This document shows positions 1 to 32,880 of a DNA stretch of 34,364 nucleotides, in pieces; within the stretch, counting starts at the first letter, position 1, and each line of letters opens with the position of its first letter. The notes beneath the pieces were generated by a model. That model was not told the DNA's origin. It saw nothing but the letters and a program-made list of their open reading frames with translations, and searched no databases. Location of the stretch: positions 1 through 34,364 of the forward strand of contig MEDY01000322.1 of NCBI GenBank assembly GCA_001724265.1, read 5' to 3'. The translations under genes were made by a program, and so were the position numbers. This DNA is from Rhizaria sp. SCN 62-66. Its lineage: Eukaryota.

Positions 1-552
1 CACCTTTATATACCCGCCCCGAAACGACCGTGGGTGGTGTTTGCCCCAGTCTGAGCCTGTGAGACTTGGTATTTTATGCTAAATGTCGGCGGTAACAATA
101 TTGTTGTCGAGGACAACTTCGAAGAAGCAGAATATCAATCTCTGAATGTGTGTTCTTACTGCATTTAATATCATTCGCACTATATCGAATCTACTAGTAC
201 TAGTAATGCCACAAACAGATTAGTGGCAATTATTTTTTCGGTCCAGTTCGCTCTCGATCCCATCCACAATTTTGCGGTCAGCTGGACCGCCAAACAAAGA
301 GATCCCAATTCTGCGGATTGGGGGTCGGTCTTCGTCCAGGAAACTGCTTGCAACGACTAATCCAGATAAGCCCGATGTTTTAAATTGAATAGAAACGCGT
401 ATCTAGGATGCATCAAGATATTTATTTGACGAAATTTCAATTGAACGGACAGGGTGAAGAATTATTTCACTCTAAGCGCTCCACAAAATGTTCCTCCCAC
501 TCTCACCCCTTTCGACCTCTCACCGTCCGCCCTCTCACGCCCCCTGTCCCGA

Positions 553-3500
553 ATGCATTGCGCTGTTTTACGCATCCCCGATTTGTTTCTGTCTTCGCGC
601 AGCGTCATGTTCCCTGTCGTCGGCGGCAGCGGGACAGGCGCGTCTGGTGGTGCGTCAAAAGATCCAGGTTCTCTGGCACGCACCACCCACTCGACCCCCA
701 ACGCACACAAAGACCCATTTAGCAGCACAAATGATTGTAAGTATCACAATACTGATACACATCAACAACAGAATTTTGGCTCCACCAAGGAAACATGTTG
801 TTTTGGCCCAATTCCCGCTCCCACATCCTCACCGAGCACTTTAACCTCCAATTCCAGCCAGTCAACACTAACACACAAGACGACCGCCAACTCCAGCTCA
901 AGCTTCAGCTCTAGCTCCCGCCCCGCGTGCTCCCGCCCCGGCACCAATACCGCCGCTTTCTACCCCTGTGTGAGCGTCAGCGTGAACGATAGCACTTTTG
1001 GCTTGGATAACCCTCCGCCCGACAAAGCTAACACTGCCTCAACCTTCGCCGCCGGAAATGTCACCCTCGCGGCCCCCTCGTGCATCGCGGACGCGCCCTC
1101 GGTTTTCGCCTTGGCCTCGGTTTCCGCGCCCACAACAATCGCGCCCTCTGCCTCTGCTTCTGCCTCCTCTGTGGCAAGGCTTGTTCCGGGCGTGGTTGCG
1201 GCGGCGCATTCTGTGGAGTTTTCGGCGGCGGAGTCCATGCTTGAGCACTCGTATGCCGACGATGATGGCGTTCACCACAACGACTACAGTGGCCCTAACA
1301 ACAATGTGTATAACTATTACTCGCACGAAGTGACTATTGCGAGTCATAATGCCGATGAGAACGGTCACCAATTGAATGCCAATGTCAAGAGTAGTATCAC
1401 TCCTGTTTACCGCGCACCCAACGCCAGCAGCAGCAGCAGCAGCAACATTGCAACTGCCGCGCCTGCTGCTGGCAAGGTCAGCCTCACGTGCTACACTCCC
1501 TGCGCCTCTGTGTCGACCCCAGTCGCCATACAGGCCGCCCCCGCAGCCAACTCATCCTCTCAGCTGCCCTTGGCGACCGCTGAATCGGTCGCGCGCGCCC
1601 AGGCGGGGCTGTCCGCGCTCGCGCTCGACGCGCAGGCACAGGCTCCGGGACACGCGGCCGGACACATGCCCTTGGCGCATGCGCAGTTGTCGCCGCAGTC
1701 GCTGTTGAGCTCGCGGTCTCTGTCGCGCGTCGCGCACGCCCTCTCCGGCAGCGGCAACGGCAGCGGCAACGGCAATGGCAACGGCAATGGCAATGAGAGC
1801 GCAAGGCGGAATGAGTCTGCGCGGCCGCTCGCAGTCGCCACTGTGCCGTCCTCTGTGAACCAGGGCATCAACAACGGCAGCGCAGGCGTTGCGGCCGCGA
1901 GCAGCGGGCGCACGGGCGCCGGCGTCAGCGCCTGCGCCAGTGCTGCTGCAAGTGACACCGCCGCCGCCGCCGTCGACCGCCTCGTCAAAGACACCACGAA
2001 CGCTCTGCTCGACGAGCTCGCGACCACACTCGCGCTCCCCAACTACAGCTACAGCAACAGCACCACGAGCAGTAGCAGCATCAGCAGTAACGGCAAGAGC
2101 GACGGCAAGAACGAGGTGGACGTGAAGGCTGAGGCCAAGGCCGCGGCTGAGAAGGCCGCGGTGGCCGCGTTCGCGACGCTGACGAACATCGTCCGGCACG
2201 GGCTGCATGGTCAACCCAGTGCCGACGGCTGCGGCGGTGCCAGCTGCGGCGGCCCCTTAGTCAGTCTAAGCCACCCCTTAGTCGGCGGCCCCAGCGCGCT
2301 TGCTCCCGGCACCGTCATCACCCTCTGCCTCCTCGGGCCCCGGCCCGGCGACAGGCCCGTCCCCCAAACCGCGGCCGAGACCGCCGCCGCGGCTGAAACC
2401 GACGAGTTGGCCTCCGTGCTGCGCGACGACCTGTCGTTTGTGCTCATCAACTCGCTCCGCGACGCCTCCCCGCGCCGCCGCGCCGCCGCCGCGCAGGCCG
2501 TCGCCGCCGTCGCCGCGGCGTCCCCCGCCTGCTTACTATGGGCCGCGCGTCTGGGCCTGGTCGAGCCGCTGGTGCTGATGGCGACGGACGCGGCGGCCGC
2601 GGACGCGCAGCAGCGCGCCTGGTGGCGCCACCAGCGCGCCGCCGCGCGCGGTGAGGTCTACGACAAGCCGGAGCGCTCAGCACGCGCGGACCCCGCGGCG
2701 CACGCGGACGCCGTCGCCAACTGCGAGCCCCAAATCCAGAGCGACAGCAAGGGCGACGGCAAGAGCGGCGGCCGCGCCTCGATCCGCGCGGCGACGGTCG
2801 ACGCCCTGGCCCGCAGCCGCGCGCTGCTTGGCCGCGAGCGCGCGCTCACGGTGCTGGCCGCGGCCGAGACCGCGGCGGCCGCGCTGCCCCTCTACGCCGC
2901 CGCCGCGGGTGCCGCCGCGGTCGACGAGGCCGCGGCCGCGGCGCGGGTTCACCGCTGCGACGCCGCGCTCGACGCCGACCAGGCTGACTGCACGCGCCGC
3001 CAAGAGGACCCTTTTTGTGTGCTCAACGAGTCGCTGCGCGTGTTGCCCGACTCAGCGGCGCCGGTACGCGCGGTCACCAGTACCGCCGGTGCTGCGGACG
3101 CGCGCGTATCGCTGCTGTATGCCACGCCGGAGGAGGCCGTGGCGGAGCTCTGGCGCGGCTGCCAACGACTTGTTACTGAGCTCGACAATTTCGCCCTCGC
3201 GACTCTTAAGACTGCGAAAAACAACAGTGGCAGTAGCAGCAGCAGCAGCAACAGCAACAATGACAACGACAAGAGCATGAACAGTAGCATTTCGATGCAG
3301 TCAGGTGCCGTTGTTGGCCCTGATTTCGACTCGGGCGCTTCTGTCTTGGCTCTCGATGACAGTGACGAGGATCTCAGCCGCTATTCCGCCGCCGCGCTGG
3401 ACCGGAAGCATGACGTTTTGACTGCGATGCGCCGCACGCATGCCATGAGCGCTTACACGACTGCGCGCGTCAACGAAATCTGGGCCGGCGTCGCCGCGTT

Positions 3501-3562
3501 CACCGCCGCGGACAAGAGCGCGCGCGCGATGGAAGACGACTGTGAGCTGAGCGACTCCGCCA

Positions 3563-3594
<32 letters not shown>

Positions 3595-3813
3595 AGCGAC
3601 GAGGGTGATCTTGACGATGATGATGACCACGATGACGATGACAACGTTGAGCCTGCGGCAAAGACTGAGACTGCGAGTCATGTTGGCTCCAGCAGTCGCT
3701 TTAAGAAGGCTGTATCGCTTTCACAGTCGCAGATGCCGTCAGAGTCGTTGACACAGATCGTTTCATAGTCCCTGGTTCATCACTTTTCGCGCTCGCAGTC
3801 GCGCTTGCAGACA

Positions 3814-3851
<38 letters not shown>

Positions 3852-4038
3852 CTCTCCCGCACAGTCGCTCCCGCAGTCGAAGACCGGCGCCCATGTGCCT
3901 TTCGTCGTGACCCTCAAGCCGCCGGTGGCGATCACGATGGCCTTTCACACCGCGTCGCTCCCCACTGCGTGCGACGACGGCCAGCAGCAGCAAGACGACG
4001 GTTGTGTCGGGCTGAATCTTCCGACTGCGTCAATGTAA
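553..4038 (+). CDS. Hypothetical Ala/Ser-rich protein (~1,160 aa) with a possible ARM/HEAT-like helical segment and an acidic tract. It has an in-frame TAG at 3766-3768, read as Gln.
   Basis: ORFs 454..3768 and 3805..4038 are in the same frame and separated only by one TAG (..LTQIVS*SLVHHFSRSQSRLQTQTQ..). GC-rich coding style persists to the TAA at 4036-4038 and AT-rich sequence follows. The first in-frame ATG is at 553, so the start is uncertain. The segment LINSLRDASPRRRAAAAQAVAAVAAASPACLLWAARLGLVEPLVLM looks ARM/HEAT-like (inference). Confidence 0.7.
3808..3849 (+). repeat. (CAGACG)n coding microsatellite encoding (Gln-Thr)n
   Basis: A tandem hexamer is visible directly downstream of the in-frame TAG. 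Confidence 0.9.
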
Positions 4039-4130
4039 GCTTCGCTGGGATTGAATCGTCGAGCTCCTCCTTTATTGTTTTAATTTTTAATTTTATTTTT
4101 GTTAGACTAATTAGTTAACGAACAATCGAC

Positions 4131-4165
4131 TAAGCGTATGTTATGTTTAGCATAACATACGCTTA
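4131..4165. repeat. Perfect 15-bp inverted repeat with a 5-nt loop
   Basis: TAAGCGTATGTTATG (4131-4145), loop TTTAG, then CATAACATACGCTTA (4151-4165), the exact reverse complement. Confidence 0.9.
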
Positions 4166-5730
4166 CTCTACATTCCATAAGTATTTGTGATATGTATCCC
4201 GATACTCTTCTTTTTTTTGTGCATGCCATATTATTTTATTTTATGCAAATCTGTGTACATGTCTGGTCCCACTGCTGGTACAGCTGTGGACACATGTATT
4301 CACCTTCAGTACCCAAACTCGTGGCGTACTGTATCATCTTGATTATGTGTACACCTACATCAACCTGGACTGGACAAGTCGTATCCAACTTTCAAGTAAA
4401 CGCCACCACCAACACGCAATGTCAAATAGCAGTGTGCATGTGGTACACTTGCTCTTAAAATGCCGTGCTTCCATCACAACACAAACACCACATCAACGCG
4501 ACAATGCGCAATGTCCACTCGCACAAAAAGGGTGTTGCAGCTGTCCTTGCTGCAACACGTGTCAACACGACTGACACTGACACTATCAGACACTGAACAT
4601 GTTCGTTCGCTGTCATTTTCACAGCCCAGTGCACTCATTAGCATTTGTGTCTGTATATGCGATCCCTTTTGTGGTGTAGTCTGTATCGCACGATAGCGTG
4701 TGTTAAGGTCGTTTTTAGCTCATTTCATTCTGGTTGGGTTTTTTTTTTTGCGCATCATATGTGCTTTTACTCGCTTTTTCCCCTTTATTTTGTGTGCTCT
4801 TCTCTGGAACATTTTATTTTTCTCGCCCGTCATAACCTGAAGTCTCAAGTTCACGCGCGCACAGCTCTTAAACAGCCCCCTTGCTTTTCTTTTCTTTTTC
4901 TTTTTTTCTCCTGGTGTTTTTGAACATTCGTACTCACTTTTGTACTGACTGTATCACCCAAGCTAATCCTTCTCATTCTAGCATTTTTAGTTGTCTCATT
5001 TCGGTATTTGTATGTAAACTCCTCTCGCAAGCCTTTAGTTGGCTTATCACTGAATGTGTTTCCTTTCATCATGTCATCGAATCACATCTCACAAATCGGG
5101 AAGCGAACTGTCAATTCACGACCTGTGCATGCGTCAGCGCAATCGCAAATATACGTACACACTCGTTTGTCTTTGACACGTCTTGACTCTTCCCCCCGCT
5201 GCTCTTTGCATCTGCATCAATTCTATTCATGCACAACGTAATTCTCGTCCTAATACATTCGAAGACTGCGCTACATGACTCATCATCGTTCTCCGTTTGT
5301 TTCGATTCTTCCCGAGCAACATTTGTCCTGAGATTACTTATCTCGATTTAACGATGGCATCAGAGATGTGGAATAAGTGTTTCATTATTATTCAACGACT
5401 CAAGACATACGCTAATGAGTCACTGTGAAGCCGATGCTGAAAACTTGAAGACTGCGTCTGCACTAGTCGTCGATATCATCAACAGGATTGTGGCGGTTCC
5501 GAACAACTTCATCACATGTGTTCATGTCGTCGTGGTGCTCGAACTCATTACGCTTGCGCGCGGCAACTGATCTCAGAGATAAATTCAAAATATAGTTTAT
5601 ACGAAGGTTGAACTTAGCTCTGTATTCCACAGCAAAAAACCCTCCAAAAATAGAAACAAATCATGTTGAATAAAATGTCCCTGGCCTCTGTCATCGTCGC
5701 ACCACCATCTAGTCGAAGCTTGCGCTGAGC

Positions 5731-8700
5731 TCAGTCGCTGTCGCTATCAGTGTCGGCGCCCGTGACGGTGTCGAACGGCGCGAACGCCGCCCGCAGCGCC
5801 GCCGTCGCCCTTTCCTCCTCCTCCTTCTCACTGCCGCCGCTGCCGCCGCTGCTCGCGTCGGTCGCCGCAGCGACGCAGCGGCGCCAGTCGGCGCGCTCGG
5901 GGACTCCCGCGGCCTCGGCCAGCAGCGCGCGCGGCAGCTCCAGCAGCGGCACGCGCGCGATCAGCTCGCTCACCGCGCCCTTGGCGTCGCCGCCCTCGGC
6001 AGCGCCAGCGGGAGCGCCTGTGCCGGAGCCAGTGCCGGAGCCAGCGCCGGCGGCGGTGAGGCTGATGCCCGTGGCGGCAGCGAGCGCCACGTCGCGGTCG
6101 CGTCCGCGCTCGCGGTCGCGCGCGGCCGGCGTCACGGCCCACAGCTGCTCACAGTCGCTGTCGCCCTCCTCCTCATCATCAGCAGCGTCAGCAGCAGCCG
6201 CAGCGTCAGCAGCGTCACCAGCAGCGGCAGCAGCGGCGGCGCCCTGCTGCTGTTGCTTGAGGGCGGCGATCTGGACCTGGGTTGGGAAGCGCCAGTAAAA
6301 GTACGGCGGCAGCTGCGACAGGTCAACCGCACTCGGATTGCTCTCGCCAGCGCCCTGCTGCTACTGTGGCTGCTGTTGCTGCTGTTGGTGCAAGGGTGTA
6401 CTTAGATCGAGCGCCGTGAGCATCTCCGCGATGCGCGCGCCCTGCCCACAGTCGCCGCGCACTCGCACCAGGCCGCGGCGACGCATTTCGCGCGCCACGC
6501 GCGCCGCGAACCCCGCCAGCTCAAAGGGGGCATTTGGACTCCCCGCAACAGCAACGCCGGCGGCGGCAGCGCCGCATCGCAGCGGGAGGCCGAGCGTCTG
6601 CACCTGCATGTGGTGTGTCGAGCGCGTCTTGTAGTAGCGCTCGCAAACCACGGTGCCCAGCCCCTGCGCCGCGTTCATGCCGCGCAGCCCGGCCAGGAAG
6701 CCCTCCAACTCACGCACCAGAGGCTTGACTTCCGCGCCGGGCCCAGTCGCGGCAGCGGCGACTGCGAGGCACGGCACGTGTGCGATGGGCAGCACGAAGG
6801 CATGCGAGCCGTTGATGGGGCCGCGGGGCAGCGCGAGATAACTTTCGTCGGCCACGGCGGCGACCAGGTGCGTCGCCGCGCGCGGGTTCGACAGACAAAA
6901 CCAGCAATCCGCGTCACCGGCCGCCACCGCACGTTCCTTGTCCCCGCGGCCGCCGCTGCTGGCGCGAGCGCGCTGGGCGGTCAAGACGGCGGCGGCCGCG
7001 GCGGCGAGCGAGAGCAGCGACGCCGCGGGCAGCGCGCGCAGCACGGCCGCCACCACGGGCGGCAGCGGCACCGCAGCAGCAGCAGTGCTGCTGTCAGCGG
7101 CGGCCTGCGTGTCAGAAGTTAGGCCGGCGGCCTGACTAATCGCGGCCTCCGCTGCGGCGAGCGCAGACGCGTGCGCGGCGGCGGCGGCGGCGGCGGCCAG
7201 CTCGCGGCTGCGCTCGCGCTCGACCACAGCAGCCACATCCTCCTCCTCAGCAGCGGCGGCATCGGTCGCAGCAGCGGTGGCGGCGCTGTGGATGCCGTTG
7301 CTATTACTATTGTTGTCGGCGCTCGCGTCAGAGGGCGCAAGCGGCAGCCCTGCGGCCGTGGCGGCGGCTGTCTCCCGTTGCAGCGCGCCGGCCAGCAGCG
7401 TCAGCACGCTCGACATCACGAACCGCGTCCGCTGGTGCTGCTGACCGTGGGAGTCACGTGTACCGTGCGTGCCGCTGCTCGAGGGGACGGGCTCGGTCTC
7501 GGGCTCGGCGATGAACTTGGCGTTAACAAGCGCACGCACCACGCGCATCAGCCCGCCCTGGCCCTGGCCCTGGCCCTGTCGCTGCTCACGGTCCCCCCGC
7601 TGCTCGCGGTCGCGCTCGCGCTCACGGTCGCGCTCGGCCTTGACGGGGCACATCCGCACATAGTGTTCGCCGCTGCCGCAGACCACGCACGCGTATCCCG
7701 CCGGCGGCGGCCCGTTATCACGCTCACGGTCACCGCGCTCCCGGTCGCCGCGCTCGCGCTCGCCGCGCTCGCGCTCGCGCGGCTGCTTGTCGGCGGCGCG
7801 CTGCTGCGCGACGGGGCAGTCGCTGATGTAGTGCGCGCCCGTCAGCCCGCACGCGTGGCACGAGTACCCCGCCGGCGGCGCCGCGCCCGGCGGCTGCGGC
7901 GCGCGGCGCTGCTGCTGCTGCTCACGGTCACCACGGTCACCACGGTCCGCACGGTCGCTGTGGCCACGGTCGCTGGACGACTCGGAGTCAGGCCGGCCGC
8001 GCTTCAGACCCCCAGAGCCAGAGCTGCCATCAGCGTTATTGTTGTTGTTGGAGGCGGCGAGGTGACAGTCGCGGATGAAGTGGCTGTTAGCGCCGCAGAG
8101 CCGGCACGCGTAGCCCGGCGGGGGCGGCTTGACTTCCCAGCGGCCCGCCACACGGCTGCCCGTGGCGGCGGCGCGCGCGTCGGCCTCCTCCAGCGACGCG
8201 AAGCGCAGCGCATCCACGCCTTCTTCGTGACCGAGACCGTGGCCGTGGCTGGCAGCGCTCGTGCCAGCGGCGCTTGCAGTGTACGTCGCGGGGGCCAGAG
8301 CGCTGCTGTTGCTGTTGCTGCTGTTTTGACTGATGTTCGTCTGCGCGGGGGCGCTACTTAGAATGGATGTAAGGGGGTATGGCGAGAGCGGCATCGCGGC
8401 CAGCGCGGCGGCCGTCTCGCCGCCGGCGTTGACCACGAAGCCAGAGTTCGCGCACATGGGCGTGATGGAGAACGCCGTGACGTCCTTTTGTTTAGCCGCG
8501 TTGCCCACGGGCGCCATCAAGTAAAGCCGCGTCACGACTGTACTCGTAGTACTTGTGCTGCCGCTGCTGGTGTTGACGATGTTGCGGTAAGGAGGCACGG
8601 CGGTGTAGGTGCCGCGCACGTGCGTGTAAGGGGCGCCCCTTAGACCGGCGTAGGTCCCCCCCGGCGCGTGCATCGACGACGAGATGTGGTACGCAGGCAC

Positions 8701-10125
8701 GACACTTACACTCGCACTTACATTCGTGCCAGCGGGAGCCCCGACACTCTGCGAGACGACGCCACGAAGCATCGGGCAGCCACTCAGCGCAGTCACGGGC
8801 GCAGCCGCAGTGCTCTCGGACGACTCGGCTGAGGAGTCTAAGGGGGTACTTACACTGGGCATGAGCGCGGCCCAGTTGTCTGGCGGCGACGACGACAGGA
8901 ACACGTCGCACACGCCCGCACCAGCGCTCTGACCGCTGTTTTGACCGGCGCCTTGACTGGTGTTTTGATCGAGGGCGGCGACGGCGCCCGTGAGCGCGAA
9001 CAGATCGGCCCGCGTGTAGCCAGACAGAGACAGGGACAGTGTCTGCGCCTGCGCGGGCGGCAGCGCGGCGCCCGAGAGGAAGGCCGCGCGCAGGCCGCAG
9101 GGCAGGATGCGCGCGCCCGCCTTACCCAAGTACAGCAGGTTGGGGGCGAGGGCCACGCCGACGCCGTCCTGCGAGACCGCGTCGGCGCCGCTCCCGCTCG
9201 CGCCACCGCTGCTGCTGCTGCTACTGCTGCTGGTGTAGAGAACTGAGGCGGGGAGGCCGGCCGCGGCAAGAACGGAGAGGGCGGGCCCGTCGCCGCCGTG
9301 GCCGTCGCCGTCGCCGGCGCCTGTTCGAGGGGAAAGATAGAACGAGTCAGGAAAAGATTGATTAGATTAAGCACGCCAATGAGATTACGAGCGAAAATCG
9401 TTTATAAATTCAATTAATTTTGATTTAAAAAAACAGCATGTTTAGTCTGATACAAAATCAATCATATATGACAGAGATACACAATCTAAAAGCTTCATCG
9501 CCTGAAGTACGCGGCACTCGTCATAGCGCAGGCTTGTAGCTGACTATATTCGAGTTGCTTGAGTGTGTGCAGGGACGTACCAAGGATAAAGTAGACCGGA
9601 ATGGGCAGCTTACGCTCGCCGCTCACGAGCGCAGCAAGCGCAGCGCCCGCACTCGCACTCGACGCGCCACTGCTAGCGCTCGCATTAGCATTGATGTTGG
9701 GTGAAGGTGCAAAGAAGGATCCGACGCAGAAGGCGCAGGCGAACTTGGCCTGGGCAAGGGCACGCGTAAGACGGGCTTCAAGCAGGTCGAAGCGGCCACC
9801 GACGTCGCCGAATACCAGACTGCGTTGCGGCGGCGTGCGCGCGTGGGCGGGCAAGTCGTGAGAAAGTGAAGGGAATCGAAGAGAAAGTTAGACAGATGAA
9901 TAGCGAAAGTGAAATAGGAGTTATGAAAACAAAGACATGGTATATCCAGACCATAAGTGTTGTTTGATGATACATTTGATCATCACCGCATTAAGTCTTC
10001 ATCACCGCTCGCAAGCGAGCTGCATGAGAACGATTGCGTGAGTCAACGATCAAGAGCAGTTGCAGGCGCGATTGTCAGTAGACGTACACCTTCACAGGCG
10101 CTGTGGCCGGGGCCGTAGTTGCCAT
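5731..10125 (-). CDS. CWF19L1: CWF19-like protein 1 (Drn1 family), 1,288 aa: N-terminal metallophosphatase-like domain, three CCHC zinc knuckles, and CwfJ C-terminal domains 1 and 2. Model: complement(join(5731..9320,9581..9819,10088..10125)), with an in-frame TAG at 6361-6363.
   Basis: The spliced N-terminus MATTAPATAPVKVLVFGDVGGRFDLL..FCVGSFF..PIPVYFILG and LAPNLLYLGKAG match the CWF19L1 phosphatase-like domain. CwfJ_C_1 is seen as DCWFCLSNP..HLV..YLALPRGP..H..VLPIAH..ER..HMQVQ. After the TAG come PYFYW and a CwfJ_C_2-like segment, LPRALLAEAAGVPERADWRRC..EEE..LRAAFAPFD. The gene ends at TGA 5731-5733, and exon phases are consistent. Confidence 0.93.
9321..9580 (-). other. Spliceosomal intron 2 of CWF19L1 (260 nt)
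   Basis: GTACGT donor, AT-rich body, CTAAT branch-like motif, pyrimidine tract and ACAG acceptor. The phase-1 join is in frame with ORF 6361..9156. Confidence 0.88.
9820..10087 (-). other. Spliceosomal intron 1 of CWF19L1 (268 nt)
   Basis: GTACGT donor and GCAG acceptor. Removal restores ..PVKV-LVFGDV. Confidence 0.8.
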
Positions 10126-10704
10126 AGCGGAAGACTAAACAGCAAGGATGTTATTAGAACCTCAACTACAGTGCAAAACAGAAAGAGATGGAAGAGAGCG
10201 AGAGCCTAGATCGGGGAAGCGAGGAGAGAGGACACCAACGGACAAGTCGAAACAGCGTGAGTGCGTACAGCCTGATGATGAGGTCCGCAAGACAAATAAC
10301 TGAAAAGGTTACGCATTTAGAACGTATTAATCGTCGATTCAAAAGGAATTCCCTATCGACGGAAGTTGATCTAACCTTGCATTGCGAACTCAATGCCCCC
10401 CTCGGCCCACCACCAGCGCCTGGCGGGAGCTGGCTGTCGACCAGAACGCCGAGCCACCACGCATTATCGCCTTCAACTCCCCTCAACCCACCGTCACTGG
10501 CTCTCCCGTTCATCATCCACGTTGAATTATCTCTTATCTCACTGATCCCTTTATTATCTTTGTCCCGCAGCAAACTACCCGGCCCTGCATATCCCGCACT
10601 TCCAGCCTCCCACTTCTCTCGATCGAGCCGCTCCCTGCCCCCGCCAGCCCGGCCTAACCCCCGTTCGCCCGCTTCCCGCGCCCTCCCGCGCTCGTTCCCG
10701 CCCC
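10126..10704. promoter_or_regulatory. Short divergent (head-to-head) intergenic region, likely a bidirectional promoter plus 5' UTRs
   Basis: The CWF19L1 ATG (10125, -) and the methyltransferase ATG (10705, +) face away from each other, 579 nt apart. No specific motif was identified. Confidence 0.45.
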
Positions 10705-13606
10705 ATGTCCGCGCGCGTGAACGACATCTGGACGCGCAAGGCGCGCTCGCTGGGCTTCCCTTCCCGCGCCGTGTTCAAGCTCATCGAGGCGCAACAGAAG
10801 TTCCGCCTGCTGCGTCCCGGGCAGCGCGTGCTTGACCTGGGCTGCTCGCCTGGGTCCTGGACGCGCCTCGCCGCGCGCTCTGTGGGGCGCAAGGGCTACG
10901 TGCTGGGCATAGACCTCACGCCGCTGGAGCACGACGAGGTGCGCGCCCTGGCCGCCGAGGTCGCGCCGTTGCGCATCGGCCAGGCGCCCCCCGCCGACCA
11001 AAGCAGCGCTGGCGCCAACAACAGCAATAAGCGCGGCGTGTCGAGTCTGTTCGGCAACGCGGCCGCGAGCGCCAAGGTGGGCGGCGCGGCCAAGGGCGAC
11101 GACGACGCCGCCGCCGCTGTGAGCATGGACGCCTACCTCAGCAAGCTCGAGCAGAAGCGAGTCCTCGCTGAGCAGCAGCAAGAGGAGCTAGAGGGGCAAG
11201 AACGAGAGCTTGAGCAAGACGGCGTTAGCACGAGCAGCGACGCTGACGCCGACGCCATCATGAACGACTCCACTCAAACAGCTGACGTCAACACTGCTGC
11301 ACCTGCTGCAACTTCTGTTGAGACGGCGACTCCTGGCGGCGGCAGCGGCCGCGCGTTGCTTAAGGCCGAGGCGCGGCTGGCCCGCTCGCGCGCGCCCGTG
11401 CGGCTGCTGTACGGCGACGTGACCGAGTGGCGGCCCGACGCGGTGCACCGGCAGGCCTTCGATGTCGTGCTCAGCGACATGGCGCCCAAAACCACCGGGC
11501 TGCCGTCGGAGGACGCGGCGGCCTCTGCCGAGCTCTGCCACGCCGTGCTCGACCTCTGTCCGCGCGTCATGAAGCCGCCCGTGCGCAAGTGGGTCACTTA
11601 CAACGCTGCTAGCGCTGACGCTGACGCCAGCGCCGCTGCCGGCAGCGCGAGCGCTCTCAGTGGACGCGACGGCAGTGACGCGGAGACTGAGGCTGACGCG
11701 AATGCGACTGCCGCTGCTGCTGGTGCTGCTGCTGGTGCTAAGAGCGCCAACGACAAGGGCGAGGTCGAGGAGGACGACGACGAGCGCGGCCTCCGCGACA
11801 TTGGCGCCTTCGCCCGCGCCGCCCCCTCGAGCGCCGGCGCCGCAGCCGACGCGAAGGTAAGTCGCGTGTCGGCGGCGACGGACCTGTACTCTGCAACGCT
11901 GCAGCGGCGGCTGGCCAAGGCCGGGCTCAGCGATGAGGACGCCGCCGCCGTCGCGGCCTCCGTGCGCGCCGCGCCAGAGGAAGTCACCGAGGTCGACGTC
12001 GCGGTTCTCAAAAAATCGCTCCGCACCGCCGCCAAGATCAGCGTCAACAAGCACAACTCGCGCTCTAGCGCCGCCGCGCCCGAGGGCGAGACCGCAGCGG
12101 CCGAGACGGCGAGCGAGCGGCGGCTGGAGACGTACTACCGCGGCGCGCTGCTCATGAAGGTCTTCCAGGGCACCGACTTCGCGCCGCTGCTTAAGCGTGT
12201 TAGGGTACGTGACATGCGCACTTGCCACGCGACGCACCGCGTGGAATGACTTGATTTGACGTCCATGTTCTGGTTATTAATGCGACTGTCATGTGACTAT
12301 GCTTGAAATAATTGCATGTTCTTTGCCTAAAATCCTATCTCACATCATCCTAACTTATCTATCTTTTTTTCATCCTCACTGATTTCTCTCCTCGACCCAC
12401 TGCTCTCGACAGGAGATGTTTGTGAGCGTCAAGTCGTTCAAGCCCGAATCATCGCGCTCGGAGTCGGTCGAAATCTTCCTCTTCGCCAAGGGCCTCCGCG
12501 TCCAGAGCAACAACAACAACCGCAACAATCTCTCTGACGGCGGCGACGCGAACATGAACGACCCCAGCGGCGGCCCCAACAGCAGCAGCGGCGGAGGCAG
12601 CGGCAGCGGCAGCCGGCTGGTGGGCCGCGCGAACGCGGGCTACATGACCGCCAGCGGCTTCGTGGCGCCCGCGGGCGGGTTGGGCGGCCTCCCCGTCGGC
12701 CCCGGCCCCGTCGGCCGCCGCCTGCAGCGCTCCCCGGTGCCCACCGGCTACTACGACAGCGACGACGCAGACGTCGCCGCCGCGCGCACGCGGCTCGGCG
12801 GCTATAACGGCGACGACAGCGAGGCGCATGCGCAGACGCAGGCGCAGGGGCGGCTTGACTTCGAGGGCATGAGCGCGGTGATGCGGCAGAACCTGGCGCT
12901 GGGTGAGAGCGCGTACTTTGACACCGTCGACGACAGCGTGCGCAACAACGACACCGGCCGCGGCGGCCGCAGCTACGCCAGTCGAGCCAGCCCTATCCCT
13001 AGCCCCAGCAACAGCAACAGCAACACTAAGACTCGCGATGGCAGCGGCGTGAGCGTGAGCTTCGGCACCGGCACCGTCACCGTCCCCGCCACCAAGTCCA
13101 CCGCTGCCGCTGCCGCTGCCTCTGCCTCTGCTGAGGACGCCGCAGTCGACGCCGAGCTGGCCGCGCTGGAGGCCGCCGAGACCCGCGCCCGCGCGCGCGC
13201 TGCCGCGAGCGCCGCCTTCGCCGACGAGGACGACGACGATGACTACCTTCCCCCCAGCAGCGGCAATAGCTCTGGCTCTGGCACTGGCAGCGGCAACAGC
13301 GCTGCGGAGCGCGTGGCGCGACTGCGCGCGCTGACGGGCCTGTCGCTGTCGCAGCCGGTCGCGGCGGCCGACGCGGCGGCCGCGGCCGCGGCCTTCAAGG
13401 AGGAGGGAATGTGGTTCGCGCGCCAGGTCTCGGTGCTGCGCGACGTGCCGCGCGTCGACATGGTCGGCGCGCTGGGCATCGACGACGATGAGGACGAGGA
13501 CGACGCCGCTGGCGCGGTGAAGAGGGTGAAGAAGACCGCGACTGCGGCGGCCGGCAGCGGCGTGATCAAGAAGAGGCGCCGCAGCAGCGTGCTCGGCGAC
13601 GAGTGA
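10705..13606 (+). CDS. MRM2: FtsJ/RlmE-family rRNA 2'-O-methyltransferase, MRM2-like, ~897 aa with long low-complexity insertions. Model: join(10705..12204,12413..13606).
   Basis: Motifs: D.WTRKARSLGFPSRAVFKLIE, VLDLGCSPGSWT (SAM binding), GIDL, GDV, FDVVLSDMAPKTTG, LLMKVFQG and, in exon 2, FVSVKSFKPESSRSESVEIFLFAKG. Together they give the full K-D-K-E tetrad. SDMAP-TTG is the RlmE/MRM2 type rather than the Trm7/Spb1 DGAP type. The gene ends at TGA. The true start may lie upstream, since there is an acceptor-like site at 10570. Confidence 0.88.
12205..12412 (+). other. Spliceosomal intron in the FtsJ/MRM2-like gene (208 nt)
   Basis: AGG|GTACGT donor, AT-rich body with CTAAC/CTGAT, pyrimidine tract and ACAG|GAG acceptor. 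The phase-0 join gives KRVR-EMFVSVKSFKP. Confidence 0.9.
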
Positions 13607-14014: not shown

Positions 14015-17000
14015 TTACTCCAAGAGGAAAAAGCCAGCCCCGTCTCCAGCGTCGGCATCAGCGTTGGCGTCACCCTCTGTCCGTGACTGCGCCTGCGCCT
14101 GTGCGCCCTCGGCGTCCGCGTCAGAATCGGCGTCTGCGTCCGTGAAATCGATGAGACTGAGCGTCCTGGCCACGAAGCCCAGCCCCCGCCCCTTGCTCGC
14201 GCTCGCGCTCGCAATGCCGCTGCCGCTGCCACCACCGCTGTCAGCGCCGCCCTTGCTCTTGCTCTTGCTGCCGGCGCTACCGTGCGCGCCGGCGCCGGCC
14301 GCGCCGACCGTGGGCGTGGGCGGGAACGCTGACAGCATGTTCAGGTTGCTGCGCTGCTGCTGCTTCTTGCTGCTGCCCGCGCCAGCGCCCCCGCTCGCGG
14401 CGCCGGCGGCGCCGGCGGCGGAGGAAGACGAGAGTGAGACGGACAGCACGGGCCTGCGCCCGCCGCTGTTCTGAGCGTGGCTGTGGCCGTGGGCGCTGCC
14501 GCTCGCGCCCGCGCTGCTGATACTGCTGCTGCTGACCTGACCGCTGTAGCGAGAGGGTGTTGCGAGGTCTGCGGGTGTGCCGCTGTTGGTGTTGTTCGCG
14601 GCGGGTTTCGCCAAGAGAGGCGTTTCGGGGCGCGAAAGCGACGACGAAGTTAAGCCGTGAAAAGAAGCAGAAGCCGCGTTTGAGACAGATGCGGAGCCAG
14701 AGCCCACTGAGTGCGAGCTCGAACTGCTGCCAACGCTGCTGCTGTCAAAGCACGGCGTGCTGGTCCGCGTCACAATCCTGCTGACTCGGCCGCTGCCGCC
14801 ACCGACCGCGCTATGCGTGTTGACGTGCGCGCTCGGCTGTAACGGCAACTGCAACTGTGACTGAAGGCTGATGTCAAGTGCCTGCGAGTAGTGGCCGTGC
14901 GCAGCCAAGTGGCTGTGAGCAGAGAACTGACGGCCCTGGGCCCAACCGGCCTGGCTCTCGGGCGCGAGCGGCTGCGACAGCGGCTGAGCGCTGCCACGAG
15001 TCGTCATCAGAGCCGCAGTCGCAGCGGCCTCTCCACTTAGCGCGCCCGCCGCTGCGAAGCCCTCTCCGCTCTGCGCAACGCCTCCGATGACGCCGTGGAA
15101 GCGACTCACGCGCAAACCGAGGCCGAAGCCAGCGCCGTGGCCGTCGCCACCCTCGTCGTTTCCATGTGCGCGCTCCCCAGCGACCGCAGCGGCCGCAGCG
15201 GGGTCGATCTCGGCCTCGGCCTCCGTCTCAGTCTCGACCTCGGTCTCAGTCTCGGCCTCCGCCTCAGTTGCCTCAGCCTCAGCCTCGGCCTCGGTCTCGG
15301 TCGCCTCAGTCTCAGTCGCATCTGCCTCCGCCTCCGCCTCAGCCTCGGCCTCAGCCTCTGCGGCCTCGGCGACGACTGCGCGCAGGTACCCGCCGACGCG
15401 CCCGGCGACCGCGGCGACTACCGCGCCCGCCGCCGCGCCCGCCGACGCCGCCACGGCCGCGGCCGCGCGCGCGAGCGGACCCGCGCGCCGCGCCGCCGCG
15501 CGCTGCTGCTGCAGCGCCAGGTGGCGGCTGATGGCCGCGCGGACCACGCGCTCGCGGTCGCTGCGCTGGTGCTCGCGGTCTGCGCGGTCCAGCCGCTCGC
15601 GCTCGCGGTCACTCTGCCGCTGGAGCTGCTGCTGCTGCTCGCGGTCACTCTGCTGCTGGTGCTGCTTGCTGGTGCTAAGGTTGTTGCTGTTGCTGTTGCT
15701 GCTGGAATTGAAGCTCGAACTAGAGCTGTTAGTGCCGCTGGTAGAACCTGCATTGCCAAAGCTAGCGTTGTTCAAATGAGCGCTCTTAGACTCTGCAGCG
15801 GCGGCGTCGCATAAGTGCACCTTAGCCTGGTCGAAGTGCCGCTCCCCGTCCAAGTGTGACTGCTCGGCCCACAAGCTGCCGCCGGCGGGGGCCAGCGGTG
15901 AGCGCGGCGACAACAGTGCCGCGGCGCCCGCCCAGCCCTGTTGCGGGCTATGCTGCTGCTGCTACTGCTGCAGCTGCTGCTGCTGCGGCCGCTGCAGCGA
16001 GACCGCGTGCTGCAGCTGCAGCGCCTGCGCCTGCGAGTGCGCGTGCGCGCGTGCCCGCCCGTCGCTGCCGCCGTAGCTGCCAACGACGACCCCGCTGCCG
16101 GCGCCGGCGCCGTCGCCGTCGTCTTCGTTGTCTCTGGGCAGGAGCGCGGCGGCGGCGGCGGCGGCGGCGGCGGGCGACGAAAGCGCCAGCGCCAGCCGCG
16201 CGGCGGCCTTGCTTTCGAGGCCCGACTGGCGTCGGGGCTGCAACACGTACCCGCTCTGGCTCAAACCGAGACTGGAACTAGAGCAAGCGCCAGCAGCGCT
16301 GCCATTGCTGATGAGCCCTGTAACGAAACTGAATCGAGCAATGTTGTTATTGTTGCCGTTCGCGACAGGCGTGCGCCGGGGGGTGCGGCGCTTGCTCGGT
16401 GTCCGACCCCCGCTTGCGGCCGCAGAGCCAGCGCCAGCGCCAGAGTGGGCGTTCGGACTGGGGCTGGGGCTGGGGCTGGGGCTGGGGCTGGGGCTGGGGC
16501 TAAGATGGGACGTCGGCGTGAGCGTTGCTGCGGAGGCATCGCCGCTGCTGTAGTTGGGGCTGTGCTTAGGGACGCTACGATCGTCATCGTCATCATCGTC
16601 GTCTTCGTTGTTAAAATCGCCAACGTATGCGATATCGTCATCACAATCGCACTCGCTGTCGCCGTTGCAGCCGCAGTCGCGGGCGTGGCTGCTGTCGGCG
16701 ATGCTGTCGTTCAACGCGTCTTCGTCGTCGTCGTCGTCGTCGTAGTCGTCATCCTCCTCGCAGCTGTCGTCGTGGTCGTCGTGGTCGTTGCAGTCGTCGC
16801 AGCCGCCGTCGCCGACGCTACGCCCATGCGCGCAGCACGCGCTGCCGGCGACGGCGTCCTTGTCGCCCGCAACAGCGTGGTGATGGTGAGCGCCCCGACT
16901 CGCAGTCTTGGCGTTGGGGCTCATATGGTTCCTGAGCCGGTTGACGACGATGTCGTCGGCGTCGTCCTCGTCCTCTTCGGCCGCCAGCGCGAGCCTGAGC

Positions 17001-20000: not shown

Positions 20001-21277
20001 TGCGGCAACAGCGCTGCGCTGTCATCACTAATGCGGGTGCTTGCGTCAGCGCTGGCGTCAGGAAGTGGGTACTTAGACCTCTGCGGCTTGATTTCCTCGG
20101 CGGCGGCTCCGTCGCCCTCAGAGTCTCTGTCGCCGTCGTCGTCGCCGTTGCCGGTGTAAGGGCCGTACTTGTCAACGCGATTCTTAGCGGGGGCGCCGTC
20201 AGAGGTGCGAGCGCCCACGGTGTGAGTACCCTTAGACCGGTTACGGACGCCCTCCTCCTCCGCGTGCTCCTCGTCAGTGCTCAGACGCAAGGCACCTAGA
20301 CTGAGGGCGCTCGGACCAGGTGCGCCCTTAGCCTCAGCATCAACACCTGCCGTCGTGACGTTTGCGTAGTTCGATAATGTCGCAGACTCTGCAACTGCGC
20401 TTTTGCTGTCATATTTGTCGTGTCCGCCGCCACCACCGTCGTGTTGGTGGTCGTGCTCGTGGGGGCTCTCGACGAACGTGGCCAGCAGCGGCGCCCGCTG
20501 CGCCGCCCGCAGCCGCAGCTGCGACCGCAACAGCGGCTGCGGCCGTGGTGGCGGCAGCACGCGCAACGCCGCGGAGGCAGCGGCAGCAGCAGCGGCGGCG
20601 GCGTCAGCGTCGGCTGTGCCGGCGGCATCGGCTGTGAGGTTCGCGTCGCTGCCGTCGCCGCTGCCGCCGCCGGCAGGCGCGCGGGCCGCGGCCAGGGCGG
20701 AGATCGCGCGCGCTGCGGCGGCGAACGAGCCGCCCCTGGTCTCGCCGCCGCGGCCGCCATCACCGTCACCGTTGTGGGCGCCACCGTGGCCGTGGTCGTG
20801 GCCGTGGCCGAGGCCGAGGCCGGGTCTGCTCTTGTCGTAGTGACTCTTGCTGCCGTCGCCTCGAGAGCCTTTCGCCCGGACCTTGGCCTTGGCTTTGTCG
20901 CTCTTGCTGCCGGCCGCGTCGCCACTCGCGCCCGCACTTGCGCCAGCACCCGCAGCCGCGCCGGCAGTCATAGCTAGAGCTACATCGCACGTGCGCAAGC
21001 CAGGAAGACTCGAACTGCTCGAACGACTACTCGAGCTTGCGGCAGGGCCAGAGACGGCGACGCGCGCTGGGCTGGTCTTGGAGCCCTCGCTGTAACCCGC
21101 GGCAAGCCTGTTCGCGTTCCTCGGGGACAGGAAGCCTGAGGCCGAGCCGGCGTTGGCGCCGGAACCGGACGCAGTGGCGGTGGCTGACGAGGCGGAGGCG
21201 GCCGCGGCGGCTGCGGTGGGTGAGAGCGCGATGAACGACCAGCTGCGCGTGTGGCGACCCACACGCGAGTCGTCCAT
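14015..21277 (-). CDS. Giant (~2,420 aa) low-complexity protein containing an unorthodox MIP/aquaporin domain, with an in-frame TAG at 15962-15964
   Basis: ORFs 15962..21277 and 14015..15913 are in one frame and joined through a single TAG inside poly-Gln (..QQQQLQQ*QQQQHSPQQ..). An in-frame TGA upstream (21359-21361) supports the ATG at 21277. The frame ends at TAA 14015-14017, or at a splice donor there. Confidence 0.8.
16458..16501 (-). repeat. (AGCCCC)n coding microsatellite encoding (Ser-Pro)n
   Basis: A tandem GGGGCT hexamer is visible on the + strand. Confidence 0.9.
17470..18290 (-). other. MIP/aquaporin-like domain (SIP / AQP11-12-like) with NPS and NPA boxes
   Basis: Hydrophobic helices with LREFVFAF, GALINPSNAV (NPS at 18059-18067), LTLELAVC, AVMNPASALG (NPA at 17726-17734) and LVYTIGPVVGSVVGAFAF. 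Confidence 0.8.
19594..19645 (-). repeat. 21-nt tandem repeat, ~2.5 copies (HLDVVKG HLDAVKE HLD)
   Basis: CGTCTAAGTG recurs three times at 21-nt spacing. Confidence 0.8.
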
Positions 21278-29110: not shown

Positions 29111-29142
<32 letters not shown>

Positions 29143-32100
29143 TTGTTGTTCAGAGGAATCGCCATTCGCAGCGTTGGTGCTGTCGCCGTCGAAACTAAGC
29201 CGCATCGATGGCGGCTTAAGTTCTTCGTCCTCGCCCTCATCACCCTGCTGCGGCTTTGCTGCCGCACTGCCACTGCAACTGTGGCTGCTGGTGTGGCTGC
29301 CACGGCTGCTCCCGACGCTGAGGCCGTCTGCCTCCGAGTCCGTCGCCGCAGCGGCCGCCTCAGAACCGCCACCGAGCCCCGCACCGCCGCGGGGGATGCC
29401 CTGCAGCGTCGACGCAGACTGCAGCGGCGACTGCCGGTCCTGCTGCTGCTGCTGCTGCCTCTGCTTGCGGTGCTGGGCGTAGGCCGGCGAGGATGCCGAA
29501 GACGATGACGGCGACGGCGTCGGTGGGTCGTATAAATACATGTCCCCATCCCCATCCTTGCCGCAGTCCTTGCTCTTGCTCCCATCCGGACCGTGACTTT
29601 GGCCGTGGCCCTCGCGGCCGCGGTCGCGGGGCGGGCTGGGACTGAGGCTCACGGTCACTGACACGGCCGGGCGCAGCCGCGCTGGAGCCGCGGCGGGCGC
29701 AGCGCTGCCAGCAGCAGTGGCGGCAGCAGCAGTAGAACAAGGGGTCGCGCTGGCACCAGCGCGGTGGGGAGAGCCTGTCACGGCGGCGGCGAGCGCGGCG
29801 GCGGCGGCTGCTGGGGAAAACGCCCTGGGCCGGGACTTGGAGCCGCCGCCGCCGCTCGCACTGGCCGCCGCGGCCGAGCTTGCACTCGGATTGCCAGGCG
29901 CAGTCGCACGCGCCCGGGGACTAGCCCGGAGGCTGGTCTTGGCTGCAGCGGCAGTGGTCGCAGCAGGGGCGGCGGCGGCGGCGGTGCTGCTAGCCATGGA
30001 CTGTGGACTCTTGTCTGTGCTCTTGCGAACGCTCTGCGTCTTGATCTTGCTCTGTGCGCCCATGCTCGCTGCGCCGCTGAACGACGCCGCCGCCGACCGC
30101 AGCGGCGACGCGGACGGGGACGCGGACGGAGACACGGAGGAGTTGAGCGAGATGACGCTGACGTCGTCGTCGGCCATGCACGCCGCGCTTAGATGCTGGC
30201 GCGGGGTACTTAGATCCGGGCTCACGGGGGGACTTAGACGCTCGCTGGTCGCCTTGGTCTTGGCGGCCTCGGCCTCCGCAGCGCTGGCGTAGACGCGGGT
30301 GCGCGTGATGACCACGGCCTTGCCGCCGCCGCCGAAGCCGCCGCCGCCGAAGCTGGTGGCGTCCGGGTCAGATCCGTCGCCGTCGTCATTGTTGTTCGCG
30401 TGGGTGGTGTTGTTACGATTGTTGCTACTGGTGTGTCCGTCGTCGTCGTCTGCGTCAGTGTCGGAGTCTGAGAGGTAGAGGCTGGGCTCCGTGTCGATAC
30501 CCAGCACCTCGGTCGGCGCGGCAGCAGGTGCGGTTGCAGCGGCAGCGGCGGTGCGGTCAGCGGGCACAGCGGCCGCGCCATTGGCGGCGACCACGGGCAG
30601 CTGGGGCAGCCGTGGCGTCGACCCCAGCCCGGGACCCGCGGCGTCCGCGGCGGCGGCGTCTCCGACGTCGCTGCGGCCGCGGGCAGCAACTGTGGGCGCA
30701 GAAGCGACCGCGGGCGCCGCAGCGGCAGATGGCACCGCGGCGACTGTGGGCGCGGGGCCGGGGCCCAGACTGGGCCGGCTGAAGCGCGAGACTGAGCGTG
30801 GAGCAGACCGGTCAACAGCAGCAGTTGCAGCAGCAGTCGTCGCGGTTTCGATACCGCGAGCAGTGCCGCGGCTGGGGCTGGGACTGAAGCTCGCCCGGGC
30901 CCGGGGCTGGGGCTGAGGCTGGGGCCGAGGCTGGGGCTGGGGCTAAGGCCGGGGGTTCGCGGCGACAGCGACGCTCGCGGCGGCACTAGAGGCGCTGCCG
31001 AGGTTGGTGTGGGCGCCTGTGCCCGCGCTGCTGGGGCGGGGCCGGGAGCGGGACCGGGCGAGGAACTGAGACTGCTGAGACTGCTGAGATTGCGAGAGCG
31101 AGGGCGAGTGCAAATGGGCGTGGGCAGGGGAAGGGGGGGGACGCGCGCTACGTGGCGTTGCAAGGCCCTTAGACGAGGTGGCGGCAAGCCCCTTAGACTC
31201 GTCGGACTTGAACTCCACACCAGCAGCAGCAGCAGCAGCAGCACCAGGCACGCGCCCCTTGGACTGCGCGCGCTCCCCCCTAGAGGACATCAGAAACTCC
31301 TGAGCACAACTCCCCGCACCCGCACTCGCGCTCGCGCTCGCGCTCGCGCTCGCAGCTGCAGCCGCCGTTGCAGTCGCTGGATCATGTGCATGTGATTGCG
31401 CCTGCGCCCGTGCCTGGGACTGGGCCTGAGCCTGTAACTGTGACTCTGGTTGCGGCTGAGAGGCGGCCGCGCGCGGCGGCGGCGACTGCGGCCGCAGCAC
31501 GGGGATGCGCGACGGCGACATCGCCCGGTCGCGCTCGCGGTCGCGGTCACTGGATGCGTCGTTACCGCCACGGTTCTGGGTTTGCGGCGGACGCTGTGGC
31601 TGCGAATGTGACTGCAATGCAGCCTCAGTCTACGCCCGCGCCTTCGCCTGAGGCTTGGCCTGGGGCCTGGCCTGCGGCTTCGCCTGCATCGGCGCCGGCC
31701 GCGGGCTGGGACCGGGGCTGTGCGCAGCGCGAGAGCTAGCGCCAGAGCCAGAGCCAGAGCTCGGGCGGGCGCGGCCGGCGGCGCCAGGGCCAGTGATGTC
31801 GTAGCGGCTACGCGGCGTGGGGGGCAGTGCAGGCGCAGGCGCGGCAGCAGCGGCAGCGGCGGCGGCGGCGGCTGCTGCTGCGGCGGCGGCGGCGGCAGCG
31901 GCAGCCTCAGCCTTCCTGTTGGCCTCGGACGCGGCCTCCGCCTTGGCGACTGCGGCCGCTGCAGCCGCAGTCGCCGCCGCCGCCGCCGCCGCCGCAGCAG
32001 CCTCGGCAGCAACGGCCACGGCGGCGGCCTCGGCCTCAGCCTGTGCCTTGGCCTCGGACGCGGCGGCCGCCGCGGAGGCCGCGGCGGCGGCGGCGGCCCC

Positions 32101-32836: not shown

Positions 32837-32880
<44 letters not shown>

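Follow-up and report, generated by a model that had tools for sequence, protein, structure and literature searches.

We analyzed a 34,364-nucleotide (nt) stretch of genomic DNA (contig MEDY01000322.1 of assembly GCA_001724265.1, Rhizaria sp. SCN 62-66), referred to at its full length as the window, which carries on its minus strand, at 10125..5731, a three-exon gene resembling CWF19L1/Drn1 with a TAG triplet in its reading frame. The upstream DNA was read for 5' exons because the long open reading frame (ORF) of this gene contained no ATG before the start of its homology to CWF19L1. The features of the gene are as follows (GC, fraction of guanine plus cytosine; polyQ, polyglutamine; pLDDT, predicted local distance difference test score; numbers with P denote proteins and numbers with X sequencing runs):

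10088..10125, minus strand: exon 1, with the ATG at 10125-10123, ending in phase 2 (sequence and modelling)
9820..10087, minus strand: intron 1, 268 nt, GTACGT...CAG, GC 0.48, with stops in all three frames (3, 2, 5)
9581..9819, minus strand: exon 2, 239 nt (modelling and homologue alignment)
9321..9580, minus strand: intron 2, 260 nt, GTACGT...CAG, GC 0.39, with stops in three frames (6, 4, 5)
5731..9320, minus strand: exon 3, with the TGA terminator at 5731-5733, followed by a drop in GC and by 7 stops in the next 100 codons
7648..8106, minus strand: three zf-CCHC_2 zinc knuckles at 8065-8106, 7816-7860 and 7648-7689 (Pfam PF13696, E=6e-19, 3 stretches)
6580..6924, minus strand: CwfJ_C_1 (HIT-like) domain (Pfam PF04677, E=1.3e-17)
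6361..6363, minus strand: in-frame TAG in the polyQ linker HQQQQQQPQ[TAG]QQ (sequence; identical in X1 and X6 contigs)
6286..6309, minus strand: PPYFYWRF, the first conserved strand after the TAG, aligned with YVLWRF/YVLWTF of P0005/P0006 (predicted strand E223-227, block pLDDT 92)
5734..5958, minus strand: core of the putative CwfJ_C_2-equivalent domain (ARVPLLELPRALLAEAAGVPERADWRRC...FAPFD; tail profile, pLDDT 82-96)

The spliced coding sequence (CDS) spans 3867 nt, corresponding to 1288 codons and a stop, and the TAG, at residue 1079, is its sole internal stop codon. The N-terminus obtained by joining the exons (MATTAPATAPVKVLVFGDVGGRFDLL...) matched the N-termini of homologues, with 52 of 150 targets showing a stretch from query residues 1-99; for example, query residues 11-180 aligned with residues 7-144 of P0008. 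Intron 2 contains CTGAC ~25 nt 5' of its 3' end. Both introns start with GTACGTC, end with CAG and are far AT-richer than the exons. These two 5' introns indicate that the organism has spliceosomal introns; the other long ORFs of the window look uninterrupted.

CwfJ_C_1 covers residues 815-929 of the stop-to-stop ORF and matched with 64.2 bits (cut-off 21), and the best solved relative of the protein was human CWF19L1 (chain 8ro2_L1, E=1.2e-18), one matching stretch of which falls after the TAG, where DWRRC of the window protein faces human DWRQC. We also found the Dbr1-like N-terminal pseudo-metallophosphoesterase region that discriminates CWF19L1/Drn1 from CWF19L2/Cwf19: weak, colinear N-terminal stretches matched human CWF19L1 residues 79-117 and 197-247, in addition to the 52 of 150 homologue alignments described above. 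No Pfam family was reported over this Dbr1-like region. The zinc knuckles form an insertion after the Dbr1-like N-terminus and ahead of the CwfJ domains, an arrangement also present in P0006, P0007, P0008, P0016 and P0017, and because several homologues share this architecture, the insertion marks a CWF19L1 subfamily.

A preliminary description of this DNA had placed an in-frame TAG at 6361-6363 in the context CAG CCA CAG TAG CAG CAG, which was borne out when read on the minus strand. The gene lies on that strand, and the CTA that the plus strand shows at 6361-6363 reads there as a TAG in frame with its surroundings (CAG CAA CAG CAG CCA CAG TAG CAG CAG; residues ...QPQ-[TAG]-QQGAGESNPSAVDLSQLPPYFYWR). 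The frame is open for 1001 codons 5' of the TAG (9366..6364) and for 209 codons 3' of it, before the TGA at 5731-5733. All of PPYFYWRF, PERADWRRC and FAPFD were found in these 209 codons, in agreement with the earlier claim that reading through would add 209 codons containing PYFYW and a P.RADWRRC/FAPFD end, then TGA. Furthermore, the post-TAG segment contains no ATG at all, and hence the C-terminal module cannot be made separately.

Four runs, all of them represented by Logan contigs, were compared with the window, and the output was dominated by low-complexity cross-matches. Runs that contain the stretch derive from bioreactor, wastewater, activated-sludge and microbial-fuel-cell metagenomes, including a polyA metatranscriptome; DNA runs X1-X3 contain it in full. 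A 3376-nt contig from run X1 (covering 3863-7161) showed 0 differences to the window across the TAG, as did a 243-nt contig (6301-6543) from run X6, which belongs to another study than X1, and no variant rows were present at 6361-6363 in the run contigs. Consistent with this, P0153, a copy of the protein derived from the Joint Genome Institute (JGI), ends at the same residue as the TAG (931 amino acids, aa). Since identical contigs were obtained in two different studies and the JGI copy carries the same truncation, the base call of the TAG is real and not a sequencing or assembly error.

The segment behind the TAG was compared with homologous proteins. A phmmer search with the 412-aa C-terminus, in which the TAG was read as Q, against 1.84 billion representatives returned 850 matches at E<=1e-3, and among the best 150 of these, 125 contained a colinear stretch situated wholly 3' of the TAG and at the C-terminus of the homologue. 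The closest relatives, P0005 and P0006, were 47-50% identical in the alignments and ran without interruption across the TAG region, with the aligned blocks YVLWRF, QLW.V...ARDRERGR, LLDLPRA..AEA.G.PE..DW..CV and FAPFD. When a profile built from 132 homologue C-terminal tails, with the window's own proteins excluded, was searched against 601 six-frame fragments of the window, it matched the 209-aa fragment with 59.6 bits (E=1.3e-17), and the next best fragment had E=1. Leaving out the two closest relatives gave 58.8 bits, and 1000 shuffles reached at most 4.7 bits. Every near-invariant column of the family that lies 3' of the TAG (R, P, W, C, E) is retained. The near-invariant R and W have a spacing of 15 residues, equal to that of R459 and W474 of yeast Drn1; judged from this spacing and conservation, and not from an alignment to yeast, the two pairs may correspond. 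Drn1/CWF19L1 is described as a cofactor of the lariat-debranching enzyme, and in yeast Drn1 conserved C-terminal CwfJ residues including R459 and W474 are required for intron turnover (PMC4105757; here and below, statements from the literature follow excerpts of the cited papers).

An AlphaFold model of the 412 residues spanning the TAG had a pLDDT of 75.7 and a predicted TM-score (pTM) of 0.77, with values of 79-96 in the conserved post-TAG blocks. By VIA-align, this model superposed on Caenorhabditis elegans CWF19L1 (8ro1_L1; Z 21.8, root-mean-square deviation 2.1 over 198 residues, model 33..409 against chain 333..533) and on human CWF19L2 (6id0_U; Z 21.3, model 16..408 against chain 667..894). 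The superposition reached the C-termini of both CWF19L1 and CWF19L2, whereas single-domain HIT proteins scored only Z<=9.6. Because it runs through to these C-termini, the TAG appears to split one structural module. Thus, sequence comparison and the predicted fold identify the post-TAG segment as the C-terminal domain of the family, a putative CwfJ_C_2 equivalent that shares homology with the part of the homologues to which Pfam assigns CwfJ_C_2. The homologue stretches, the tail profile and the superposition likewise support the earlier proposal that the TAG separates CwfJ_C_1 from a conserved C-terminal module, which a stop at this position would delete.

With TAG read as sense, the long ORFs of the window fused into seven:

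445-4038, plus strand: long ORF continuing for 89 codons after its TAG, ends in TAA
5731-9366, minus strand: the CWF19L1/Drn1-like ORF, ends in TGA
10546-12249, plus strand: long ORF, FtsJ-like
12383-13606, plus strand: long ORF
14015-21358, minus strand: long ORF, ends in TAA
23307-28019, minus strand: long ORF of 1570 codons, ends in TAA
28576-34362, minus strand: long ORF with two internal TAGs

Five of the seven ORFs carried one or two in-frame TAGs. Their 9334 codons contained seven TAGs in frame but neither a TAA nor a TGA; six of the TAGs are internal and one precedes its ORF's first ATG. Off frame, the same ORFs contained 327 TGA, 115 TAA and 84 TAG, and at this TAG share of 16% the probability that all seven in-frame stops would be TAG is ~3e-6 by our own arithmetic. 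As terminators, TAA was used three times, TGA four times and TAG not once. Since TAA and TGA were absent in frame from 9334 codons and all seven ORFs end in one or the other, UAA and UGA appear to be kept as stops. Furthermore, the codon-position GC pattern continued across each TAG and collapsed after each TAA or TGA. In the CWF19L1 gene, GC at the three codon positions was 0.77/0.53/0.78 before the TAG and 0.81/0.56/0.75 after it, as opposed to 0.48, 0.49 and 0.38 3' of the TGA. Besides the TAG at 6361-6363, the internal TAGs are:

3766..3768, plus strand: IVS[TAG]SLV in ORF 445-4038, then 89 codons to TAA (GC at third codon positions, GC3, 0.80 after the TAG and 0.35 after the TAA)
15962..15964, minus strand: in polyQ, QQQQLQQ[TAG]QQQH, in ORF 14015-21358, then 648 codons to TAA
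24351..24353, minus strand: LRRY[TAG]INVMVGG, not low-complexity, in ORF 23307-28019, then 347 codons to TAA
30943..30945, minus strand: standing where a CCN-CAG (PQ)n repeat would have CAG, CCT TAG CCC CAG CCC CAG CCT CGG, in ORF 28576-34362
31630..31632, minus strand: AKARA[TAG]TEAALQ, the second in-frame TAG of ORF 28576-34362

Public collections reflect the same TAGs as ends of proteins. Copies of the CWF19L1 protein (P0002 and P0153) are cut at the TAG after 931 aa, the part behind it is held as a separate 134-aa ORF (P0004 and P0154) for which a GTG was taken as start, and the public copy of the gene at 23307-28019 (P0152) is cut at its TAG after 1201 aa. This is a systematic artefact of standard-code gene calling, and because public gene calls are cut at TAG, the proteome of the organism is systematically mis-annotated under the standard code.

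The contexts of the six internal TAGs were also informative about the amino acid inserted. The TAGs at 6361 and 15962 interrupt pure CAG runs and the TAG at 30943 fills the CAG slot of its CCN-CAG repeat; the other three contexts (IVS_SLV, RRY_INV and ARA_TEA) are uninformative on identity. Among the six residues flanking a TAG the mean number of Q was 1.67, which matched only that at glutamine codons (1.44; every other amino acid <=0.38), and compared with random positions the excess of flanking Q at TAG sites had P=0.0015. CAG is the dominant glutamine codon of the window ORFs (337 CAG and 76 CAA, next to 6 internal TAG), and TAG is one transition away from it. From this codon context alone, UAG most likely stands for glutamine, which is likely, not proven. 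That UAG is a sense codon with another meaning, for example leucine, its meaning in the rhizarian exLh and in some phyllopharyngean ciliates, or glutamate, tyrosine or lysine, is improbable. Codes in which UAG means leucine do exist in eukaryotes (PMC5304391, PMC11687900), half of the TAG contexts are silent on identity, and none of the TAGs sits on a position conserved among homologues; against such an assignment stand the interrupted CAG runs, the filled CAG slot, the flanking Q and the single transition from CAG.

Taken together, we consider it likely that the window is nuclear DNA from an uncultured eukaryote that is rich in GC and poor in introns, that this organism uses UAG as a sense codon, most probably for glutamine, and UAA and UGA as stops, and that the CWF19L1 CDS is continuous. 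The view of the preliminary description, that the domains of this gene indicate a sense UAG, is thereby supported, both by the homology and fold of the post-TAG domain and by the stop-codon pattern of the whole window. The CWF19L1/Drn1-like gene would then be a single continuous three-exon CDS of 1288 codons with a single UAG, located in a lineage-specific polyQ linker between CwfJ_C_1 and the CwfJ_C_2-equivalent domain. The ribosome would have to decode this UAG to produce the C-terminal module, which is predicted to fold together with CwfJ_C_1. By analogy to known cases (PMC5304391), decoding may be performed by a glutamine tRNA with the anticodon CUA, one base from CUG, that does not read UAA, and the release factor eRF1 may have a weakened recognition of UAG.

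Several observations weigh against a sense UAG or against its assignment to glutamine. The preliminary description had looked to a Pfam CwfJ_C_2 hit downstream of the TAG, and taken literally this expectation failed: hmmscan with CwfJ_C_2 (PF04676) gave no match even at E<=10, neither for the read-through protein nor for the 209 aa alone. In 9 homologues, CwfJ_C_2 was reported for 7 and exceeded the gathering score in 1, and both closest relatives were missed; because of this, the Pfam model appears weak for the clade, and the comparison with homologues points to the missing match as a failure of sensitivity. All of the evidence comes from a single 34-kb window and its six internal TAGs; the lack of TAG among seven terminators is a small sample, and two or three sites drive the flanking-Q statistic. 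None of the six TAGs falls on a homologue position conserved as glutamine: that of CWF19L1 lies in a linker missing from the relatives, and the only TAG outside low-complexity sequence is in an orphan gene. A search of the window for tRNA genes with ARAGORN and Rfam yielded one doubtful tRNA-Ala(GGC) only and no tRNA(CUA), and the gene for eRF1 is not within the 34 kb.

A standard code in which premature UAGs are leaky and are read by near-cognate glutamine tRNAs in glutamine-rich mRNAs, with no suppressor tRNA or eRF1 change, is slightly less probable still than a sense UAG of another meaning. In Saccharomyces cerevisiae, a QXQ context alone raises near-cognate read-through of premature stops, and together with a high content of glutamine codons it leads to the insertion of glutamine (Leslie et al. 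2026 preprint, PMC13192750). The insertion of glutamine at a UAG among glutamine codons would be common to both systems, and two of the TAGs, those of CWF19L1 and at 15962, are indeed Q-TAG-Q sites within CAG-rich ORFs, which speaks for leakiness and against a changed code. However, 4 of the 6 internal TAGs lack a Q on both sides, so that most differ from the yeast context. Moreover, TAG occurs in 5 of the 7 long ORFs, none of which has an in-frame TAA or TGA and none of which ends in TAG; yeast QXQ read-through, in contrast, is leaky decoding under the standard code. Dependence of an essential domain on partial read-through in most genes would presumably also be costly.

Removal of the TAG from the mRNA, whether through splicing of a very short in-frame intron or through UAG-to-CAG RNA editing, is highly improbable. 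The gene has introns, and in-frame GT..AG spans containing the TAG between the conserved blocks do exist; among the RNA contigs listed, none bridges 6361-6363. Yet there are only two such spans, of 24 and 33 nt, they have a GC of 0.67-0.71 and start with CA|GTAGCA, whereas the real introns of the gene (260 and 268 nt) are ~10 times longer, AT-richer and begin with GTACGT. No GTAYGT donor is present in exon 3. The intron ending at the TAG that the preliminary description had considered as an alternative is hence unsupported. Furthermore, each of the six TAG sites in five genes would need its own in-frame removal, and the position-specific GC pattern is unbroken across the TAGs. Contig joints near 6387 proved to be long-range artefacts of CTG repeats.

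Just as improbable is that the TAG reflects a nonsense mutation, a lesion in a pseudogene or a sequencing or assembly error, with CWF19L1 truncated at this point or its gene inactive. In favour of this, one transition turns CAG into TAG, CAG runs are mutable, and public gene calls do cut the protein here (P0002/P0153 and P0004/P0154). However, the sequence is identical in runs of two studies and in the JGI copy, and the 209 codons behind the TAG retain an open frame, codon-position GC, the invariant residues of the family and a confidently predicted fold. Moreover, 5 of 7 ORFs would have to be disrupted, each time by TAG and in no case by TAA or TGA.

With respect to RNA, run X5 showed no depth in the bins 4003-5336 and pieces at 8323-8598 and around 5905-6129; these pieces show only that parts of the gene are present in a polyA RNA library. 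Contigs of other runs revealed three strain differences: 5905 T>G, within the post-TAG domain, alters a third position and leaves Gly unchanged (GGA to GGC), 6127 C>A likewise leaves Pro unchanged (CCG to CCT), and 6129 G>A would replace Pro by Ser. Searches for further contigs of the organism or its relatives confirmed none of 594 pattern stretches in metagenome contigs with the window C-terminus as query, none of 185 in metagenome contigs with P0006 as query, and none of 33 in genome contigs with alignment A2 as query.

Among the other genes, ORF 23307-28019 stands apart in composition (GC3 0.55 versus 0.76-0.89 in its neighbours). It matched no Pfam family, and its C-terminus is rich in Cys (CIVCGD...CNHVVCVDCL...CHCGVC); a search for its homologues matched only the window's own truncated protein. 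The ORFs at 445-4038, 14015-21358 and 28576-34362 (1197-2447 codons) consist mostly of Ala/Ser/Gly/Gln low-complexity sequence, also without a Pfam family, and ORF 12416-13603 had no usable match in Protein Atlas. CAG-type repeats occur throughout the coding DNA of the window. The tRNA-Ala(GGC) is a 90-nt ARAGORN call at 2662-2751 on the minus strand, within and antisense to the GC-rich ORF 445-4038, and is probably a false positive, as Rfam reported no tRNA there.

In comparison with known CWF19L1/Drn1 proteins (PMC4105757; 8ro1_L1, 8ro2_L1), the window protein shares the Dbr1-like N-terminus, CwfJ_C_1 and a C-terminal module of the CwfJ_C_2 type, and the motifs CWFC, HxHxQ, R...DW..C and F.PFD are kept. 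It differs from human CWF19L1 in its length (1288 versus 538 aa) and in its three zf-CCHC_2 knuckles before the CwfJ domains. In addition, it has long low-complexity inserts, including one of ~100 aa within the C_2 region, and falls below the Pfam CwfJ_C_2 model.

Among variant codes, UAR (UAA and UAG) is read as glutamine (NCBI table 6) in many ciliates, hexamitin diplomonads, Dasycladales, Cladophorales, oxymonads and Amoeboaphelidium (PMC5304391, PMC2984419). The window has in common with these the reassignment of a stop codon to glutamine, but TAA is not sense in it, occurring 0 times in frame in 9334 codons and ending 3 of 7 ORFs. UAG means leucine in the rhizarian exLh (PMC5304391) and in uncultivated phyllopharyngean ciliates (PMC11687900), cases that, as far as described in these excerpts, resemble ours in that UAG alone was made sense and in that they were found by mining of (meta)omic data; unlike them, the window contexts (polyQ, (PQ)n and flanking Q) indicate glutamine and not leucine. 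In the phyllopharyngean ciliates Hartmannula sinica and Trochilia petrani, UAG is reported to encode glutamine and UAA is the preferred stop (McGowan et al. 2024, PMC11687900). Here, too, only UAG is reassigned, to glutamine, and is decoupled from UAA, whereas the window has GC-rich exons, 260-268-nt introns starting with GTACGT and multi-kb ORFs, with TGA as the terminator of 4 of 7. Such exons, introns and ORFs, on a contig that reaches at least 34 kb, are, we presume, not ciliate-like.

The closest parallel in pattern was the code in which UAG is glutamine and UAA and UGA are stops (NCBI table 15 pattern): both an in-frame UAG in an intact conserved CDS and the disuse of UAG as terminator, in seven ORFs, were found in the window. 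This nuclear code is described for Iotanema spirale (Metamonada, Fornicata; Panek et al. 2017, PMC5304391), which, in the excerpted account, has in common with the window occasional in-frame UAGs in conserved genes, UAG never being a terminator, stops at UAA and UGA, and an inferred glutamine; the predicted mechanism, a tRNA-Gln(CUA) and an altered eRF1, may be shared as well. The Iotanema case was built on 126 to 730 transcripts and conserved-column statistics and that of the window on a single 34-kb genomic stretch. Furthermore, the window's coding DNA is ~70-75% GC and its UAG is rare (6 versus 413 CAG and CAA codons). UAG would thus account for ~1.4% of glutamine codons, with a preference for CAG repeats, in which one C-to-T change is enough to create it.

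The window is therefore most likely an instance of a rare but already known kind of code variant, shared with Iotanema and two ciliates. A literature search turned up no wastewater protist with a variant code among the 15 listed of 60 papers. With a chance somewhat short of even, we suggest tentatively that the organism belongs to a lineage new to variant codes, kin neither to ciliates nor to Iotanema, in which UAG was independently decoupled from UAA and is at a low-usage stage. If this low-usage reading is true, the organism would be a natural, GC-rich model of the first capture of a freed stop codon. An organism that is GC-rich, abundant in wastewater and bioreactor metagenomes and represented by contigs of at least 34 kb would add an independent data point, with genomic and not only transcriptomic material in which tRNA(CUA) and eRF1 changes could be located. 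Codes in which UAG and UAA differ in meaning are described as rare and of special mechanistic interest (PMC11687900, PMC5304391), and the same two papers report UAG as glutamine from Iotanema spirale and two ciliates.

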